In this document: in pieces, positions 3,425-41,567 of the stretch
Layout of the letters: each line of letters begins with the position of its first letter
Numbering within the stretch: the stretch's first letter is position 1
Source: Clostridia bacterium
Lineage (GTDB): Bacteria; Bacillota; Clostridia; UBA1381; UMGS1253
Length of the DNA stretch: 64,000 nucleotides
Direction: 5' to 3'
Assembly (NCBI GenBank): GCA_045652745.1
Contig: JAZRUW010000004.1
Coordinates: 24,277 to 88,276, forward strand
The notes under the pieces: model-generated
The model's database searches: none
Told to the model about the DNA's origin: nothing
The model's input: only the letters and a program-made list of their open reading frames with translations
Translations under genes and position numbers: made by a program

Positions 3425-4029
3425 TTAAAATAAAGGAAACCATCGTGGTGGAGGGCATCTATGATAAAATCCGTTTAGAAAGTGTCGTAGATGCAGTCAT
3501 TGTGGCCACCAACGGCTTTACGATTTTTAAAGATAAAGAAAAACTTGCCTTTTTGCGCAAGATGGCCGACACAACCGGCCTTGTGGTGCTCACCGATTCC
3601 GATGCGGCAGGCTTTGCCATCCGCAATTTTGTAAAACAGGGCATTGCCAAAGACAAAATCCGTCACGCCTATATCCCCGATATCTTCGGCAAGGAACGGC
3701 GCAAAACCGCACCCTCCAAAGAGGGCAAACTCGGTGTGGAGGGCATCGACGGCGCACTTTTGTGCGAAGCGTTGCGCAAAGCCGGCGCGACCATCCTCGG
3801 TGCAGACGAGCCAAAATATGAAATCACTGACCCGATTACGCGCATGGATTTGTATAACGACGGCTATATGGGCGGTGCAGACAGCGCCGAAAAACGCAGA
3901 AAATTGTTTGCAGCCCTCGGTCTGCCGCAAAGAATGTCTACCAACCTTTTGTGCGAGGTTATCAATCAGATTACGGACAGAGAAACCTATATCCAAATTG
4001 CACAAATGATAAAAGAGGGAAAACTTTGA
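3421..4029 (+). CDS. Toprim-domain protein (DUF4093 / RNase M5-like)
   Basis: N-terminus IKETIVVEGIYDKIRLE...LTDSDAAG resembles the RNase M5 Toprim fold. The TTG start overlaps the kinase stop (GCTTGA). Confidence 0.75.
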   Translation: MIKIKETIVVEGIYDKIRLESVVDAVIVATNGFTIFKDKEKLAFLRKMADTTGLVVLTDSDAAGFAIRNFVKQGIAKDKIRHAYIPDIFGKERRKTAPSKEGKLGVEGIDGALLCEALRKAGATILGADEPKYEITDPITRMDLYNDGYMGGADSAEKRRKLFAALGLPQRMSTNLLCEVINQITDRETYIQIAQMIKEGKL

Positions 4030-4057: not shown

Positions 4058-4327
4058 TTAATCCTCTGCTTTTAAAAGTTTATATGCATCAATTTCCAGT
4101 GCATCCGCAATTCTAAACAATGTATCCAAAGATACTGCCTTATAAATATTCGGCGCCTCAATCTGCCCTACAAAGGAAATATCACAATTCATTTTTTCCG
4201 CCAACTGTTCTTGTGTTAACGATTTCAATTTCCGATAATAAGATACTTTTAAACCAATTTTAATATAACGTTCTCTGTATTCTGCTTTCATATGCATCAC
4301 CATATATATTTTATCGCATTGACGCAA
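4058..4327 (-). CDS. XRE-family helix-turn-helix transcriptional regulator
   Basis: LKSLTQEQLAEKMNCDISFVGQIE is a classic Cro/C1 HTH. The real start is probably an internal Met (MKAEYRERYIKIG, ATG ending at 4291). Local GC is low. Confidence 0.8.
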   Translation of the reverse strand: MRQCDKIYMVMHMKAEYRERYIKIGLKVSYYRKLKSLTQEQLAEKMNCDISFVGQIEAPNIYKAVSLDTLFRIADALEIDAYKLLKAED

Positions 4328-5818: not shown

Positions 5819-5894
5819 GCTGGTGTAGCTCAATTGGCAGAGCAGCTGATTTGTAATCAGCAGGTTGCGGGTTCGAGTCCCATCACCAGCTCCA
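5819..5894 (+). tRNA. tRNA-Thr (anticodon TGT)
   Basis: Manual cloverleaf: acceptor GCTGGTG/CACCAGC, D arm GCTC..GAGC, anticodon arm GCTGA-TTTGTAA-TCAGC, T loop TTCGAGT, encoded CCA. There is one C-A mismatch in the T stem. Confidence 0.88.
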
Positions 5895-5897
5895 TAC

Positions 5898-5982
5898 GGA
5901 AGAGTTCCCGAGTGGCCAAAGGGGGCAGACTGTAAATCTGTTGCTTTCAGCTTCGATGGTTCGAATCCATCCTCTTCCACCA
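5898..5982 (+). tRNA. tRNA-Tyr (anticodon GTA), long variable arm
   Basis: Acceptor GGAAGAG/CTCTTCC, anticodon loop CTGTAAA, long variable arm, T arm GATGG-TTCGAAT-CCATC, encoded CCA. Confidence 0.92.
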
Positions 5983-5983
5983 G

Positions 5984-6015
5984 AAAAAAGCATCGACTTT
6001 GTCGGTGCTTTTTTC
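5984..6015 (+). terminator. intrinsic terminator after the tRNAs
   Basis: GCATCGAC-tttg-GTCGGTGC stem followed by TTTTTT. Confidence 0.7.
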
Positions 6016-6017
6016 AA

Positions 6018-6179
6018 TGAAATTTGCCTACGGCAAGTGAAATAGCTCCGCTATGAAATACACTTCGCGTATGAAATATTGCTTCGCAATATGAAAGGCA
6101 AATTTTATTTCACATTTTGCGTTAGCAAATTATTTCATAATCCGCAGGATTATTTCATATCAACGAAGTTGATATTTCA
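6018..6179. repeat. array of seven distinct mini-hairpins separated by TGAAAT (x5, forward) and ATTTCA (x4, inverted) linkers
   Basis: Linkers start at 6018, 6038, 6054, 6072, 6092 (forward) and 6107, 6132, 6152, 6174 (inverted). Each spacer is a different 5-8 bp palindromic stem with a 3-4 nt loop. See findings. Confidence 0.6.
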
Positions 6180-9773: not shown

Positions 9774-9856
9774 CCAACCTGCTTAGTTATCACCTCTTTG
9801 TCATTTTCCGCACCCGTACACTTTTGCAACCAAATATGTCATTTTCCCCAAAGCCA

Positions 9857-9908
9857 ACAAATTTCTACACGCAATAAAAAAGCACTCCGTCGGAGTGCTT
9901 TTTTATTA
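9857..9908. repeat. 52-bp direct repeat copy 1 (contains a terminator hairpin)
   Basis: ACAAATTTCTACACGCAATAAAAAAGCACTCCGtCGGAGTGCTTTTTTATT. Identical to 10685-10736 except for the loop base. Confidence 0.9.
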
Positions 9909-10217
9909 TTCCCTTATTGCTTTTATAATGTAAAAAACCAAAGCGATCGGGTAAGAAATCCAACCCAGTAAAAGTGACCCAATAAGTCTTATCATAAATG
10001 CTATTACCAAAACCGCCAACTCGCCACCAATTATCCACCCACCAAGGATTTTTCCAAACAACTCCCAACCATATGGCAAGCCAGCAAAACAAATACCGAC
10101 CGTGCAACCGCCCCAGAATTCAAACGTCGTCTCAAAACTAAAATATGCGAATGCAAAACCAATTATAAATCCAATGACACCTTTAATAATCATTGACTGA
10201 AGTTTTTCTTTGTACAT
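9906..10217 (-). CDS. small integral membrane protein (103 aa, about 3 TM), hypothetical
   Basis: AAGGGAGAG RBS precedes ATG ending at 10217. Sequence begins MYKEKLQSMIIKGVIGFIIGFAFAYF. The N-terminal extension in the ORF track (to 10331) runs through GC-rich hairpins and is rejected. Confidence 0.65.
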   Translation of the reverse strand: MYKEKLQSMIIKGVIGFIIGFAFAYFSFETTFEFWGGCTVGICFAGLPYGWELFGKILGGWIIGGELAVLVIAFMIRLIGSLLLGWISYPIALVFYIIKAIRE

Positions 10218-10342
10218 ATTACTCTCCCTTTCTTTGTGCTGTACTTTTGTGACCAAAAGTACCAAAAGTCCCGGGGGTTCCGATTCCCCCGGACCCCTAA
10301 AACGGCTTGGGCGGGTTTGCACCCCTCCCAAGACCCACCCCG

Positions 10343-10453
10343 CTACTCGCCGGTGGCGATATAGTTTTCCTCCATTTCGATTTGCAATTGCTTTAACTCT
10401 TCAATTATATCTGTGATTTTGTTAAAGACTTTAAAATACATCTCTTCCTGCAT
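10343..10453 (-). CDS. 36-aa acidic helical mini-ORF, hypothetical
   Basis: GGGGTGAGGA RBS 4 nt before ATG (10451-10453). Sequence is MQEEMYFKVFNKITDIIEELKQLQIEMEENYIATGE. It is below the ORF-track size cut-off. Confidence 0.35.
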   Translation of the reverse strand: MQEEMYFKVFNKITDIIEELKQLQIEMEENYIATGE

Positions 10454-10471
10454 CTGTCCTCACCCCGCTAA

Positions 10472-10627
10472 TAAAAAAATGCGCAGCCGAAGCCACGCAT
10501 GAAAAACGCATGTCTCCGGTTTGACGAACAAATCTACAAATCCAAAGGAAGTATGCAGAACAGAGCATGCATTTTTACCAAAATGTAAAAACACATACTT
10601 CCATTTGGAATATTCGATTTGTTCGTC
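10472..10627 (-). ncRNA. candidate small RNA or cis-regulatory leader: long imperfect hairpin plus UUCG-loop terminator
   Basis: The predicted TSS is about 10627, just downstream of the promoter. The 105-nt hairpin (10523-10627) has helices of 12, 6 and 9 bp. It is followed by UGCGUGGC-UUCG-GCUGCGCA and U7 (10472-10499). Confidence 0.4.
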
Positions 10628-10633
10628 GACATT

Positions 10634-10662
10634 ATTCTATCATAATCCTCGAAATCTGTCCA
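10634..10662 (-). promoter_or_regulatory. sigma-A promoter with extended -10
   Basis: Minus strand: TGGACA (10657-10662), 17 nt, TGaTAGAAT (-10 at 10634-10639). Confidence 0.5.
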
Positions 10663-10684
10663 GTTTTTTATTTCGCAAAAAAAG

Positions 10685-10736
10685 ACAAATTTCTACACGC
10701 AATAAAAAAGCACTCCGACGGAGTGCTTTTTTATTC
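10685..10736. repeat. 52-bp direct repeat copy 2 (nrdD terminator)
   Basis: Same sequence as 9857-9908 with one loop difference. The hairpin is AGCACTCCG-a-CGGAGTGCT with flanking A6/T6. Confidence 0.9.
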
Positions 10737-10740
10737 TATC

Positions 10741-13101
10741 TTAGTTGTTCTGCAAAAACTTGGTGATGTCACCGATACCGCTGTAGATTTTCTGGCTGTC
10801 GCCTTCTCTTACAACGAGGGTCGGTGCCTGTGTGATGCCGAGCGATTTTGTAAGGTCGGCCACTTCTTCTGCATCTACCTTGGTATAGTCGATGCCTGCG
10901 CTACCCAGCATGGTTGCCGCAATCTTACAGTTCGGGCAGGTCTTTGTCGTAAACAGCAAGGTCTTTTCTACCGCCGGTGCGCTCACCGGAGCATCCTCAA
11001 CGCGAATCGGGGTTGCCGGTGCACGCAAATCGGATTTTTCCAAATCATAAACCTTTCTGTCCTTAAATTCCTGACTCTTACCGTCGTTCCAGTTCTGTAC
11101 CGGACGGTAGTAACCGGTGATACGGCTGTAAACCTCGGTCTTTTCACCGCACTGCGGACAGGTATAAACCTCACCGCTCAAGTAGCCATGATTTTTGCAT
11201 ACGGAGTAAGTCGGCGAAAGCGTGTAGTACGGCAGACGGTGGTTTTCCGCAATCTTGCGTACCAGTGTAGCCGCCGCTTTCCAATCCGGCAATTTCTCGC
11301 CGAGGAAGGCGTGGAATACCGTACCCGATGTATAGAGTGTCTGCAAATCATCCTGAATGGAAAGTGCTTCAAAAATATCATCGGTGTAACCAACCGGCAA
11401 GTGCGAAGAGTTGGTGTAGTACGGTGTGCCGTTTTCGTTTGCGGTGATGATGTCACCAAACTGATCTACGTCGTGCTTTGCAAGACGGTAGGATGTCGAC
11501 TCGGCCGGTGTTGCCTCGAGGTTGTAGAGGTCGCCGTACTTTTCCTGATAATCGGAAAGTCTTTCACGCATATGATTTAAAACGTCCTGCGTAAATTTCT
11601 GTGTCTTTTCATTGGTCATATCCGCTTTGAGCCACTTTGCGTTCAAGCCCGCTTCGTTCATACCCACCAGACCGATGGTCGAGAAATGGTTTTCAAACGT
11701 ACCGAGGTAACGCTTGGTGTACGGATACAAGCCTTCGTTTAAGAGCTTGGTAATAACCGTTCTCTTAATCTTCAAGGAACGTGCGGAAATATCCATCAAA
11801 TTATCCAAACGTGCATAGAACTCCTGCTCGTTTTCGGACATATATGCAATACGCGGCATATTGATGGTTACAACGCCGACGCTACCGGTGCTTTCACCGC
11901 TGCCGAAGAAACCGCCGGACTTTTTACGCAGCTCGCGCAAGTCCAGACGCAGACGGCAGCACATACTGCGCACGTCGCTCGGCTCCATATCGCTGTTGAT
12001 GTAGTTGGAAAAATACGGTGTACCGTATTTGGATGTCATCTCAAAGAGAAGCTTGTTGTTTTCGGTTTCGGACCAGTCAAAGTCACGTGTGATGGAGTAG
12101 GTCGGAATCGGATACTGGAAGCCGCGGCCGTTCGCGTCACCCTCAATCATGATTTCGATGAAGGCTTTGTTAATCATATCCATTTCAGCCTTACAGTCTT
12201 TGTACTTAAAGTCTACTTCCTTACCGCCGATGATACAGTTCTGTTCTGCAAGATCGGCCGGTACGGTCCAGTCGAGCGTGATGTTGGAGAACGGCGCCTG
12301 TGTACCCCAACGGCTCGGGATATTTACACCGAATACGAAGGATTCGATGCACTTTTTCACTTCATAGTAAGAAAGGTTGTCCACCTTTACAAACGGTGCA
12401 AGGTAGGTATCGAACGAAGAAAACGCTTGCGCGCCTGCCCACTCGTTCTGCATGATACCAAGGAAGTTTACCATCTGGTTGCACAGCGTGGACAGATGAC
12501 TTGCCGGCTTGGAGGTAATCTTACCGTTTACGCCGCCAAGACCCTCTTGAATGAGCTGCTTTAACGACCAGCCTGCACAGTAACCTGTCAGCATCGAAAG
12601 GTCGTGAATGTGAATATCCGCGCGACGGTGTGCATTTGCAATATCGTCATCGTAGATTTCGGACAGCCAGTAGTTTGCGGTAATTGCACCGGAGTTGGAC
12701 AAAATAAGACCGCCGACGGAATAGGTCACCGTAGAGTTTTCCTTTACACGCCAGTCCGTAACCTTAACATAACTGTTTACGAGGTCTTTATAGTTTAATA
12801 AGGTTGCTTTGGTTGCACGCACCTTTTCGCGCTGACGGCGATAAAGGATGTATGCCTTTGCAACATCGGCGTAGCCGCCCAAAATAAGCACGGACTCTAC
12901 GCTGTCCTGAATGTCCTCCACCTTAATAATGTCATTTTTAATTTTCGGCTCAAATTCCGCCGTAACCTTGAGTGCAAGCAAATCAATTACGCTCGGATGA
13001 TACTGCTTGCCCTGTGCATCAAAGGCTTTTGTGATGGCCGCGCTGATTTTCGAAATATCGAACTCCACAAGCGCGCCGTCGCGTTTCATTACCTGATACA
13101 T
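10741..13101 (-). CDS. nrdD: anaerobic ribonucleoside-triphosphate reductase NrdD with a C-terminal glutaredoxin/NrdH-like domain
   Basis: ATP-cone N-terminus (VMKRDGALVEFDISKI), thiyl loop SMCCRLRL, Zn ribbon CPQCG, glycyl-radical motif SRITGYYRPV. An extra roughly 100 aa ends in TLLFTTKTCPNCK...APTLVV. ATG 13101 lies 8 nt after GTGGGGA. Confidence 0.95.
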   Translation of the reverse strand: MYQVMKRDGALVEFDISKISAAITKAFDAQGKQYHPSVIDLLALKVTAEFEPKIKNDIIKVEDIQDSVESVLILGGYADVAKAYILYRRQREKVRATKATLLNYKDLVNSYVKVTDWRVKENSTVTYSVGGLILSNSGAITANYWLSEIYDDDIANAHRRADIHIHDLSMLTGYCAGWSLKQLIQEGLGGVNGKITSKPASHLSTLCNQMVNFLGIMQNEWAGAQAFSSFDTYLAPFVKVDNLSYYEVKKCIESFVFGVNIPSRWGTQAPFSNITLDWTVPADLAEQNCIIGGKEVDFKYKDCKAEMDMINKAFIEIMIEGDANGRGFQYPIPTYSITRDFDWSETENNKLLFEMTSKYGTPYFSNYINSDMEPSDVRSMCCRLRLDLRELRKKSGGFFGSGESTGSVGVVTINMPRIAYMSENEQEFYARLDNLMDISARSLKIKRTVITKLLNEGLYPYTKRYLGTFENHFSTIGLVGMNEAGLNAKWLKADMTNEKTQKFTQDVLNHMRERLSDYQEKYGDLYNLEATPAESTSYRLAKHDVDQFGDIITANENGTPYYTNSSHLPVGYTDDIFEALSIQDDLQTLYTSGTVFHAFLGEKLPDWKAAATLVRKIAENHRLPYYTLSPTYSVCKNHGYLSGEVYTCPQCGEKTEVYSRITGYYRPVQNWNDGKSQEFKDRKVYDLEKSDLRAPATPIRVEDAPVSAPAVEKTLLFTTKTCPNCKIAATMLGSAGIDYTKVDAEEVADLTKSLGITQAPTLVVREGDSQKIYSGIGDITKFLQNN

Positions 13102-13218
13102 CTTGTATATCCCCACTTTCTCAAAATTTTCGGATTTTCGCTCCGTTTGGCGATAATTATGTAAACATTAAAAAGCACAACCCCACTCGCCCTTGCCGGA
13201 AAAAGCGGGATTGTACCC

Positions 13219-27899: not shown

Positions 27900-28040
27900 A
27901 GACTCATCCTCTTTCATCCGGACTTTAACCGTCGGCTTCGGAATCACACCGAATCAGTCTTGCGACTCGCGGGCTGTATATCTGACTTTAAAGGCCAAAT
28001 TATCCGCCGGTAGGGAATCACACCCAACCCTGAAGATTTC
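27900..28040 (-). promoter_or_regulatory. FMN riboswitch (RFN element)
   Basis: The minus strand reads ...CAGGGTTGGGTGTGATTCCCTACCGGCGGATAA...CAGCCCGCGAGTC...GATTCGGTGTGATTCCGAAGCCGACGGTTAAAGTCCGGATGAAAGAGGATGA. This matches the conserved RFN core blocks. Confidence 0.88.
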
Positions 28041-28049
28041 TCTTTAATT

Positions 28050-39297: not shown

Positions 39298-40557
39298 ATG
39301 GCAATTCCTACACCCGCAAAATATATTGCGGATTTTGAAAAAATGGGTCTCGGTATGTTCGTGCACTGGGGTCTTTATTCCCAAATCGGTAAAGGCGAAT
39401 GGATCTGGGCACACCGCGATGATTATAAAGACGTACCGCAAACAATGGAAGAGTACAAAAAACTCGCCGACACCTTTACGGCAGAGGATTTTGATGCAGA
39501 AGCACTTGTGTTGACCGCAAAAAAAGCCGGTTGTAAATACATCACGCTGACAACGCGCCACCACGAGGGCTTTTCACTCTACGACACCTGTGGTCTTTGC
39601 GATTTTGATGCACCGCATTCCGCGGCAAAGCGCGACCTTATCCGTGAATTTGTAGACGCCTGCAACAAACACGGCATTATGCCGATGTTTTACCACACAA
39701 CGCTCGACTGGTATCAACCGGATTTTGAAGAAAACTTCGATGCCTATCTGGAATATTTAAGAAAAAGCGTTGAAGTGCTTTGCACCAACTACGGAAAAAT
39801 CGGCGGTCTTTGGTTCGATGGCAACTGGTCGAAGCGCGACGCGGACTGGAAAGAAAGCGAACTTTACGCAACCATCCGCAAACATCAACCGGAAGCGCTC
39901 ATTATTAACAACACCGGTTTGGGCAACTTGGGTAAAACCGGCCATCCGGAAATCGACTCCGTAACCTATGAACAAGGTGCGGCAACTCCGTTAAATCGTG
40001 AGGGCATGGAAAAATACGTTGCAGCAGAAACCTGTATGACCATCAACAACCACTGGGGCATCGGTGCTATGGACTTTAACTACAAATCGCCGAAAGAGTT
40101 AATTGAAACTCTTTGTGCATGCAGAAAAGTTGGCGCAAACTACCTTTTAAATATTGGGCCGACGGCGCAGGGCGGCGTTGATACTTACCAGCGCGAACTT
40201 TTGGGCGTGCTCGGCAAATGGATGGATATTTATGGCGAAGCCATCTACGAGGGCAAGCCGTATCCGGCACGCAGCATGGGTAAAAACTTTGTCTTAAAAG
40301 GCGAGGATTGTCTGTATTTCTTCTTCCACGACCTCGCCCGCGGCGGCAACGCAAATGTTGTTGCATACCGAAACGGTTCCTACTTTGGTCCAACTGCCTT
40401 CGATAATGTGACAGATGAAATCGCATCCGTTGAATGGATGGACAACGGGGAAAAATTAAGTTTTGCGCAATGCGACAAGATGCTTACTATAAACGCAACC
40501 GGCTTCCCTTATGGTATGTCCACCTGCGTTCGCGTAGCAAAGGCAAAATTAAAATAA
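39298..40557 (+). CDS. alpha-L-fucosidase (GH29)
   Basis: GLGMFVHWGLYS, TTRHHEGFSLYDT and LWFDGNW are GH29 motifs. AAGGAGG RBS. Confidence 0.9.
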   Translation: MAIPTPAKYIADFEKMGLGMFVHWGLYSQIGKGEWIWAHRDDYKDVPQTMEEYKKLADTFTAEDFDAEALVLTAKKAGCKYITLTTRHHEGFSLYDTCGLCDFDAPHSAAKRDLIREFVDACNKHGIMPMFYHTTLDWYQPDFEENFDAYLEYLRKSVEVLCTNYGKIGGLWFDGNWSKRDADWKESELYATIRKHQPEALIINNTGLGNLGKTGHPEIDSVTYEQGAATPLNREGMEKYVAAETCMTINNHWGIGAMDFNYKSPKELIETLCACRKVGANYLLNIGPTAQGGVDTYQRELLGVLGKWMDIYGEAIYEGKPYPARSMGKNFVLKGEDCLYFFFHDLARGGNANVVAYRNGSYFGPTAFDNVTDEIASVEWMDNGEKLSFAQCDKMLTINATGFPYGMSTCVRVAKAKLK

Positions 40558-40570
40558 TTAAAAACTCAAT

Positions 40571-40607
40571 AAAAAAAGCGTTTTCTCTACGGAGAAAACG
40601 CTTTTTT
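40571..40607. terminator. bidirectional intrinsic terminator
   Basis: AGCGTTTTCTC-tacg-GAGAAAACGCT flanked by A7 and T6. Confidence 0.7.
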
Positions 40608-40619
40608 GCTTTAATGAAA

Positions 40620-41567
40620 TTATTTCTTTGCAATAAGAGCCTTTGCCGCTTTTTCAATGTGCGGTGCGCTCATCTCAAATTCATTAAGCAACTGCATCGG
40701 CTCACCGGAGCAACCAAAGGTGTCCTTTACGCCGATAATGTCCATAATCGTCGGGCAATTCTTGGAAAGTGTTTCTGCAACCGCGCCGCCGAGACCGCCG
40801 AGTACGTTATGCTCTTCGCATACCAATACTGCGCCGCACTTCTTTGCAGACTCAATCACCAGTTCTTCGTCAAGCGGTTTAATTGTAGCAATGTCTACCA
40901 ATCTTACGCTAATGCCCTGCGCTTCCAAAGCATCTGCCGCTTTTACTGCCTCATGGAGCAAAAGACCGGAACCGATAATTGCGATGTCACTGCCTTCACG
41001 CAAAACTCTGCCCTTACCGATTTCAAATGTGCCGTACTCATCCGGATCAAACAAAATCGGCATAGCCAGACGGCAAACACGCAGATACACCGGACCATCG
41101 TAGTCCGCGATTGCACGCAACGCTGCTTTGGTTTCCGTGCCGTCTGCCGGAGAAATTACAGTCATATTCGGCATTGCACGCATCAGCGCAACGTCTTCAA
41201 CACATTGATGCGAAGCACCGTCCTCACCAACGGTGAGACCTGCATGCGAACCAACCACGCAAACACCCAGGTTCGGGTATGCGATAGAGTTTCTAATCTG
41301 CTCATAGGCTCTGCCGGAAGAAAACATTGCAAAGGAAGCCGCAAATACTTTTTTACCGGCGGAAGCAAGACCTGCCGCCGTTGTCATCATGTTGCCCTCT
41401 GCAATACCGCAGTTTACAAAACGTTCCGGATATTTTTCTTTAAATATGTAGGTCATGGTGGACTTGCTGAGGTCTGCATCCAAAACCACAATATCTTCTC
41501 TGCCGCCAATCTCGGCAAGCTCTTCACCAAACGCAAGTCTGGTTGCAATCGGTTTTAATTCTGCCAT
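40620..41567 (-). CDS. transketolase, C-terminal (pyrimidine-binding) subunit
   Basis: Split-transketolase C-terminal half (FVNCGIAEGNMM...). Adjacent to the N-terminal subunit. Confidence 0.93.
   Translation of the reverse strand: MAELKPIATRLAFGEELAEIGGREDIVVLDADLSKSTMTYIFKEKYPERFVNCGIAEGNMMTTAAGLASAGKKVFAASFAMFSSGRAYEQIRNSIAYPNLGVCVVGSHAGLTVGEDGASHQCVEDVALMRAMPNMTVISPADGTETKAALRAIADYDGPVYLRVCRLAMPILFDPDEYGTFEIGKGRVLREGSDIAIIGSGLLLHEAVKAADALEAQGISVRLVDIATIKPLDEELVIESAKKCGAVLVCEEHNVLGGLGGAVAETLSKNCPTIMDIIGVKDTFGCSGEPMQLLNEFEMSAPHIEKAAKALIAKK

Follow-up and report, generated by a model that had tools for sequence, protein, structure and literature searches.

What is the function of the short intergenic region that lies behind nrdD in the 64,000-nucleotide (nt) stretch of Clostridia bacterium contig JAZRUW010000004.1 analysed here (the window)? 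On the minus strand, which carries the element with all its parts, a promoter is followed by a long hairpin and an intrinsic terminator, and only then by the ribosome-binding site of a 36-amino-acid (aa) open reading frame (ORF) and by a gene for a 103-aa membrane protein. A preliminary description of the sequence had proposed that this arrangement is either a gene for a small RNA (sRNA) of ~155 nt or a leader that attenuates transcription of the genes behind it. We find that it is a member of a large RNA family absent from Rfam 15. Promoter, hairpin and terminator are kept in homologous loci, with compensatory changes that include two alternative pairings, and the element is in our judgement probably a transcription attenuator that acts in cis, as the 5' leader of a unit with few genes. 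The parts of the leader are, in the order of transcription:

10657-10662, minus strand: -35 hexamer TGGACA (consensus scan)
10634-10642, minus strand: extended -10 element TGaTAGAAT, separated from the -35 hexamer by a 17-nt spacer
10616-10627, minus strand: 5' arm of the basal helix P1, GACGAACAAAUC, coinciding with the predicted transcript start
10610-10615, minus strand: internal loop GAAUAU, which holds the AUA of the family (91-98% conserved)
10596-10609, minus strand: 5' strands of the variable middle helix P2, UCCAAA-U-GGAAGUA
10585-10595, minus strand: segment (1), UGUGUUUUUAC, the 5' strand of the apical hairpin P3, resembling segment (3)
10566-10578, minus strand: segment (2), GUAAAAAUGCA plus UG, the 3' strand of P3 and the most conserved apical sequence
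10554-10567, minus strand: three-way junction UGCUCUGUUCUGCA (family consensus UGCUCUaUUU), overlapping the last two bases of the extension of segment (2)
10541-10553, minus strand: 3' strands of P2, UACUUCC-UUUGGA (from the fold)
10523-10534, minus strand: 3' arm of P1, GAUUUGUUCGUC (from the fold and the inverted repeat)
10511-10522, minus strand: linker AAACCGGAGACA, of which CCGGAG (10519-10514) can pair with CUUCGG (10492-10487) as the outer antiterminator helix
10501-10510, minus strand: segment (3), UGCGUUUUUC, which can pair with (2), as anti-antiterminator, or with AUGCG of the terminator 5' arm, as the inner antiterminator helix
10473-10500, minus strand: intrinsic terminator AUGCGUGGC-UUCG-GCUGCGCAU and U tract (consensus scan)

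The promoter, which had been recognised before, matches the consensus at 10 of 12 positions and includes the TG of an extended -10 element, and from its position transcription would be expected to start at G10627, as had also been proposed. This is the base of a long inverted repeat (10523-10627), the outer part of which (10523-10546/10604-10627) was found independently by a repeat search. In the fold, P1 comprises 12 base pairs (GACGAACAAAUC/GAUUUGUUCGUC), P2 a 6-bp helix (UCCAAA/UUUGGA) followed by GGAAGUA/UACUUCC, and P3 11 bp (UGUGUUUUUAC/GUAAAAAUGCA). All helices of the preliminary description are therefore present, the 12-bp and 6-bp ones as given; its 9-bp helix corresponds to GGAAGUA/UACUUCC, the longer version overlapping the apical hairpin by 2 nt, and the apical hairpin itself, described with 7 bp, is longer. 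The UUCG-loop terminator lies where it had been placed (stem-loop at 10500-10479, DNA ATGCGTGGC-TTCG-GCTGCGCAT) and is followed by six more U and then by AUU; segment (3), UGCGUUUUU, stands directly upstream of it. The Shine-Dalgarno (SD) sequence of the 36-aa ORF follows ~8 nt after the U tract, close to the ~10 nt stated earlier.

A 168-nt RNA (10632-10465) folds at -63.5 kcal/mol, compared with -36.5 ± 3.8 kcal/mol in 200 shuffled sequences (z = -7.1). Its minimum-energy fold lacks the terminator and has instead an antiterminator hairpin, CCGGAG.CAUGCGU-UUUUC-AUGCGUG.CUUCGG (10519-10487), which consumes the 5' arm and the loop of the terminator. Moreover, segment (2) is complementary to both (1) and (3), apical GUAAAAAUGCAUG (10578-10566) being complementary to CAUGCGUUUUUC (10512-10501). 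Antiterminator, (2)/(3) complementarity and the large homologous family had all been overlooked in the preliminary description, which had, however, recommended looking for alternative antiterminator folds. The calculated energies of the competing structures in the window are -8.3 kcal/mol for P3, -12.1 for the (2):(3) duplex, -16.1 for the antiterminator and -12.5 for the terminator, and those of the full leader are -61.2 in the antiterminated and -59.5 kcal/mol in the terminated form, i.e., a gap of 1.7 kcal/mol. P3 plus antiterminator (-24.4 kcal/mol) and (2):(3) plus terminator (-24.6, a pseudoknot penalty not yet counted) are nearly equal, which is the balance required by a switch. Family means are -14.7 kcal/mol for the terminator and -13.1 for the antiterminator segment, and the minimum-energy fold favours the terminator in only 38% of copies.

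Homologues of the leader were gathered with two DNA patterns, the first of which was derived from the linker/terminator region that the window has in common with L001/L002 (collected loci are given as L numbers), where this region is nearly identical and the hairpin sequence is unrelated. In a collection of species-representative genomes the first pattern occurs at no fewer than 119 loci, with ~91 true elements among the matches listed (the genome set), and in IMG/VR it led to one phage lineage (L003, L006, L007). The second pattern, in which a variant of segment (3) was permitted, gave 103 metagenome loci, ~50 of which were non-redundant and passed the element check. GenBank added two fecal phage contigs, both unannotated, that match the leader, and a search of plasmid sequences gave no match. 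In total, more than 150 copies were collected, from genomes of Clostridia/Oscillospirales and from metagenomes of gut and rumen, with a few on phage contigs, and the carriers in the genome set are almost all metagenome-assembled genomes of gut and rumen Clostridia (Oscillospiraceae, Acutalibacteraceae, Ruminococcaceae, Monoglobus and Christensenellaceae). L004, L005 and the pattern loci outside the Clostridia were discarded as chance matches inside coding sequence.

A covariance model (R1; 164 positions, 30 pairs) built from 42 relatives scores the element of the window at 123.8 bits (E ~5e-23). A first set of 99 sources (genome loci, to which a few viral and gene-context loci were added) contained 106 matches and a second, mixed set that included metagenome loci 107, and several of these matches are copies overlooked by both DNA patterns. 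R1 also responded weakly (34 bits) at 40531-40658, where convergent genes are separated by a long bidirectional terminator with A/T flanks; this match was not accepted as a family member. When the whole window was searched against Rfam 15, only a flavin mononucleotide (FMN) riboswitch, two tRNAs and Gut-1 were returned, none of them at the leader; a permissive scan of 10150-10800 yielded only sub-threshold generic hairpin and terminator matches. Eighteen canonical relatives gave nothing at the element, nor did a permissive scan of L018. The earlier remark that no riboswitch core is recognisable by eye thus agrees with Rfam at both gathering and permissive thresholds, and limited full-text literature searches found no description of the motif (the supplement of PMC8040213 being covered for 200 of its 408 files).

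The members share one order of parts: a strong sigma-A promoter, a hairpin of 100-175 nt at the transcript start, a short linker, an intrinsic terminator and usually a ribosome-binding site 10-30 nt further on. A promoter equivalent to that of the window, with a -10 element (at least 5/6 positions) immediately upstream of the hairpin, is found in 123 of 130 copies, 76 of which have the TG extension, and an SD sequence with start codon lies 15-35 nt past the terminator in 49 of the 91 copies of the genome set. The P1 5' arm at the transcript start (consensus UGCCAAACAA, window GACGAACAAA) is followed by the conserved AUA. The hairpins fall into two size classes of about 100-130 and 135-175 nt, and their interior sequence varies between members, every one of which still folds into a rod. 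Strongly conserved in both classes is segment (2), GAUAAAAAYGCA, which in the short class (including the window) forms the 3' strand of P3, with (1) as the 5' strand, and in the long class lies in the loop of GAAUUUG-AUAAAAAUG-CAAAUUC; no junction motif shared by the two classes was found. The linker has the consensus ACAAUCGGAGUU, segment (3) the consensus UGCGUUUUUY, and the terminator an invariant base AUGCG...CGCAU (basal 5 bp) beneath a covarying upper stem. Outside helices, conserved bases are limited to the AUA bulge, one junction U and the ACAA of the linker.

Some copies depart from the usual arrangement. In L119 and L087 units stand in tandem without an ORF behind them, and tandem units also occur in L133. 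A second terminator follows soon after the first in L063, L087, L090 and L098, where GUCGC(C/U/G)AAAC is found within ~30 nt of the terminator and ahead of the second one (in L087 at 1193-1300 and 1514-1600); this sequence is perfectly complementary to a P1 3' arm together with the GAC that the linker contributes. In L087 the whole unit of ~330 bp is repeated in tandem.

Homology and covariation analysis, as recommended in the preliminary description, revealed that the helices are conserved and that P1, P3 and the terminator have undergone compensatory change. RNAalifold recovered P1 and the terminator from 42 short-class members, with abundant compensatory change. In the R1-based alignments P1 reaches 96.8% pairing and shows changes on both sides at 10 of 10 pairs; the corresponding values are 99.8% and 6 of 9 pairs for the terminator and 76% and 10 of 11 pairs for P3, which long-class rows fit poorly. 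For none of the three did any of 500 shuffles reach the observed values, and slid controls were 35-52% paired. The alternative helix (2):(3), with 12 pairs, is 92.9% paired in the mixed alignment (slid controls 39-73%). Its pair 177/273 occurs as GC 53, as AU 33 and as GU 16 times, its pair 169/280 as GC 50 and as AU 35 times, and both-side changes amount to 103 cells vs. 42 ± 11 in shuffles (0 of 500). Since neither scan constrained (2), this covariation was not forced by the search. Copies that were found without constraint on (2) or (3) alter both jointly, among them L128 (AAAAACACA with UGUGUUUUU) and L119:257-427 (AAAAAUACA with UGUAUUUUU). The most telling of them is L094:4254-4419, in which (1), (2), (3) and the two terminator arms, T5 and T3, are all non-consensus and yet all four helices are preserved.

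The outer antiterminator helix likewise changes in concert, in that each linker is matched to the terminator of its own copy, at the distal part of the 5' arm and in the loop (AAAAUCA/UGAUUUU, ACAAAGCG/CGCUUUGU, AGAGCC/GGCUCU), and cognate linker-loop duplexes are more stable than non-cognate ones (means of -7.43 and -5.53 kcal/mol, permutation p < 1/5000). Covariation thus supports four mutually exclusive helices: P3, (2):(3), the antiterminator (by its outer helix) and the terminator. A mutual-information scan additionally revealed a hairpin, P1', of the form UUGU[UUGGCG]ACAA, to which the P1 3' strand and the beginning of the linker contribute. In its correct register this hairpin is 94.7% paired (alignment A4, columns 253-255 with 264-266; A6, columns 242-245 with 252-255); it covaries and competes with P1, and is weak in the window (UUU/AAA).

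In the mechanism that we propose, a strong sigma-A promoter would launch an RNA at the base of the P1-P2 hairpin, which is capped by P3, and the segments would compete along the chain (1):(2), (2):(3), linker plus (3) with T5 plus loop, and T5:T3. As long as P3 is closed and (2) is held, (3) and the linker would be free to pair with the emerging T5 and loop as antiterminator, and RNA polymerase would go on to transcribe the 36-aa ORF and the gene for the membrane protein. If (2) were paired with (3) instead, the antiterminator would be blocked, the terminator would form and an RNA of ~155 nt would be released. Such a chain would account for the near-invariance of (2), of (3) and of the terminator base, as a single change demands up to four compensations. 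The trigger could be, in the order in which we rank the candidates, a protein or RNA that recognises P1, the AUA bulge or (2), all conserved in sequence, a kinetic choice through pausing at the U run of (3), where the T run presumably resembles NusG-dependent pause motifs, or a small-molecule ligand. We rank protein, RNA or pause over a ligand because there is no leader peptide and, by a consensus scan of the window, no antisense promoter, few unpaired nucleotides are conserved and the downstream genes are mixed.

Behind the leader, the unit in the window continues with:

10343-10466, minus strand: SD sequence GGUGAGG (10464-10458) and 36-aa ORF MQEEMYFKVFNKITDIIEELKQLQIEMEENYIATGE (10453-10343, ATG at 10453)
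10262-10340, minus strand: G+C-rich block with three hairpins, including a terminator-like one at 10293-10270, between the 36-aa ORF and the membrane-protein gene
9906-10217, minus strand: gene for the 103-aa membrane protein (MYKEKLQSMIIKG...), with which the unit ends

The 36-aa product belongs to a family of small proteins with the motif Y..LFN.ITD.IE.L...Q...EE.YI, which counts at least 1753 clusters at 90% identity, all labelled 'hypothetical' and without Pfam domains; searches of the family against Pfam, NCBIfam, PHROGs and PDB sequences gave no match. The product is predicted to be a single helix with a predicted local distance difference test (pLDDT) score of 94. Homologues stand directly after the leader in 13 of the 74 elements of the genome set, window included, for which a downstream ORF was detected. 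Members of this family are acidic, with a single long helix predicted, and a genome may hold several of them (P0033 and P0035 lie on one contig). Their genes are usually found alone between housekeeping genes, and one copy, L134, lacks the leader. For the 103-aa membrane protein, a search of 5.8 billion proteins yielded one homologue (65% identity, in L001/L002), which is encoded directly behind a leader of the same RNA family. The G+C-rich block of ~80 nt (~70% G+C in an A+T-rich region) occurs once in the window and is not present in L001 and L017. Among 36 downstream genes scanned we found five for BspA-type leucine-rich repeat (LRR) surface proteins and four for zinc-ribbon membrane proteins, in addition to copper-amine-oxidase-N proteins, an S8 protease, a glycosyltransferase and an AbrB/MazE-like protein, and in the phage lineage a HIRAN-domain gene follows the leader. 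No link of this diverse set to one metabolite or signal was found.

Upstream of the leader lies nrdD (10741-13116, minus strand), which has its own terminator and encodes a protein with NRDD and ATP-cone domains and a C-terminal glutaredoxin/thioredoxin-like extension (residues 720-783). Leader, 36-aa ORF, G+C-rich hairpins and membrane-protein gene, in this order, make up a unit of 828 bp that is bracketed by direct repeats at 9843-9907 and 10671-10735, each consisting of a copy of the nrdD terminator and 16 more bases; the two copies differ by one mismatch over 52 nt and are 89% identical over 65 nt. With these repeats the unit looks as if it had been inserted, or gained through a duplication, and recombination at the terminator may have brought it in. 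Surroundings of the leader in other loci are varied. In L001 (3890-4550) a tRNA gene on the opposite strand adjoins the leader and the membrane-protein gene, ~80 nt including the 3' end of the tRNA are duplicated (3890-3975, 4108-4185), and a second copy of its 5' end is located ~300 nt away, resembling the attachment-site scars of integrated elements. A gene for a four-helix-bundle protein of the 23S_rRNA_IVP family adjoins the leader unit in two unrelated loci (L001, 5571-5930; L131, 2332-2682). The phage contig L003 (4931-6052, 9092-9433) encodes a reverse transcriptase upstream of holin and endolysin, and the leader precedes the HIRAN-domain gene after these lysis genes. Elsewhere in the window, the FMN riboswitch is located at 27902-28041 on the minus strand (103.9 bits), and on the plus strand, at 5819-5979 and 6015-6082, two tRNA genes are followed directly by the Gut-1 RNA (51.3 bits, just over threshold).

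A number of observations weigh against the attenuator. As the two DNA patterns preset parts of (3), T5 and T3, the apparent invariance of these segments is inflated, and the inner antiterminator helix, GCGU/AUGC, is so nearly invariant that covariation is uninformative there. Segment (2) is located at the far end of a ~25-bp rod and (3) just 12 nt past its base, so that a (2):(3) helix in cis requires the rod to bend or to open partially. The start site, termination, read-through and the direction of the logic are what we infer from the sequence, and the downstream genes have no common function that would suggest a ligand. Finally, ~17 of the 91 copies in the genome set have no nearby ORF, and some of them stand alone in tandem, which fits a gene for an sRNA; given such units, the terminated RNA may have a function of its own. 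An independent sRNA gene, whose ~155-nt product would act in trans, by base pairing via the exposed conserved segment, or as a protein sponge while the genes behind it are expressed by leakage, is a reading that is compatible with attenuation and that we consider unlikely. Every copy forms a self-contained unit, with a strong promoter and a terminator of its own, L119 and L087 have the tandem units without ORF, L063, L087, L090 and L098 the second terminators, and the sequence conservation of (2) and (3) is unusually high for a pure cis structure. However, a plain sRNA needs neither a covarying antiterminator and anti-antiterminator nor a terminator and antiterminator tuned to near-equal stability, and SD sequence and start codon follow at a fixed short distance in most copies. 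Variants of (2) and (3), moreover, match within a unit and not between units of the same genome; in L119 and in L133 the two tandem units differ from each other. The either/or of the preliminary description is thereby loosened: attenuation is favoured, and the stand-alone or tandem copies leave room for the sRNA.

An attenuator of this layout could also be a small-molecule riboswitch with the three-way junction of P1, P2 and P3 as aptamer, the ligand setting whether (2) is held in P3 or free for (3). The combination of a junction with an expression platform, the balanced switch, the tandem arrangement, which is known among riboswitches, and the enrichment of surface and envelope proteins downstream would all agree with this, and in other Clostridia surface and envelope genes are under the control of cyclic di-GMP (c-di-GMP) riboswitches. 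We nevertheless regard it as quite improbable, considering that few unpaired nucleotides are conserved, that conservation resides mostly in the strands of the alternative helices, that (2) is in a stem in one size class and in a loop in the other without a common junction motif, and that no coherent metabolic gene set follows. A further reading is a static element without a regulated switch, composed of a 5' stabiliser hairpin and a leaky terminator that fixes the ratio of short RNA to mRNA. A hairpin at the 5' terminus of a transcript is a classic mRNA stabiliser, the hairpin of the family is placed directly at the transcript start, and no effector was found; still, if there were no switch it would be difficult to see why two alternative pairings are kept up by compensatory change in more than 100 copies, which leaves this reading a very small chance. 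Hardly credible, in our view, is a mobile palindrome of the miniature inverted-repeat transposable element (MITE) or repetitive extragenic palindrome (REP) type with the P1 arms as terminal inverted repeats and an incidental RNA structure. It could account for several copies per genome, for the two size classes of 100-130 and 135-175 nt and for the position of the whole window unit between direct repeats of 52-65 nt. But the interiors of the copies are unrelated with pairs kept by compensatory change, promoter and terminator are attached at fixed positions, the repeats in the window enclose the 828-bp cassette and not the hairpin, and there is neither a transposase nor a target-site duplication at the hairpin ends.

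Other candidates were considered and rejected. The GGA of the linker is not taken as a CsrA site, as the linker covaries with the terminator loop and GGA is often absent. Attenuation by a leader peptide was dismissed since no conserved short ORF exists in the leader of the window or its relatives: a 32-aa ORF in the window (10632-10534) begins upstream of the predicted transcript start, and the relatives reach a stop after 3-8 codons. Control by a countertranscript was set aside because a consensus scan, made for the window, found no promoter-like site on the plus strand in 10470-10662, and a type III toxin-antitoxin system because there are no tandem RNA repeats and no downstream endoribonuclease.

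As far as we have checked, the mechanism is of a known class; what is new is the family, with its design of five segments and its regulon. As in other multi-segment attenuators (trp-type leaders, 1:2/2:3/3:4, and the expression platforms of riboswitches and T-boxes), an intrinsic terminator stands between promoter and ORF, a mutually exclusive antiterminator uses the 5' arm of the terminator, an upstream segment can seize the antiterminator strand and the energies are nearly equal. The leader differs from them in having neither a leader peptide nor T-box or known aptamer features, and in its five chained segments instead of four. With countertranscript-driven attenuation in Gram-positive plasmids (pT181, pIP501/pAMbeta1 and Anti-Q/prgQ of pCF10) it would share the choice of the nascent leader between antiterminator and terminator and the dependence of this choice on the capture of a short conserved segment by a complementary RNA loop, and several leader copies occur per genome. 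Unlike there, the capturing segment (2) is part of the same transcript, with variants of (2) and (3) that match in cis, and the leader is chromosomal, with no plasmid matches and no antisense promoter in the window. Orphan riboswitch candidates of Firmicutes, such as the raiA motif, and the c-di-GMP riboswitches ahead of clostridial surface-protein genes are comparable as widespread structured 5' RNAs with a terminator and an association with surface or envelope genes, whereas the leader has no Rfam match and few conserved unpaired nucleotides. ToxIN-like type III systems, finally, also combine promoter, structured RNA, leaky terminator and protein gene and likewise occur on phage contigs, but the leader lacks their tandem RNA repeats and the proteins encoded behind it are diverse and not endoribonucleases.

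It is tempting to speculate further that the family represents a new class of signal-responsive attenuator, be it a riboswitch for an unrecognised ligand or second messenger or a loop-to-tail pseudoknot switch controlled by a protein or by pausing, that coordinates a dispersed regulon of small helical proteins and surface or envelope proteins in uncultured gut and rumen Oscillospirales and some phages; we hold this to be possible, if doubtful. If true, a common and uncatalogued regulatory RNA would exist in dominant, poorly studied bacteria of gut and rumen, and dispersed genes, for small proteins of a family with at least 1753 clusters, BspA-type surface proteins and small membrane proteins, would come under one control logic. 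The leader would further offer a compact, heavily covarying system for a co-transcriptional decision made by a chain of four helices. The model lets annotators recognise hundreds of leaders that are now labelled 'intergenic', and it supplies experimenters with compensatory mutants.

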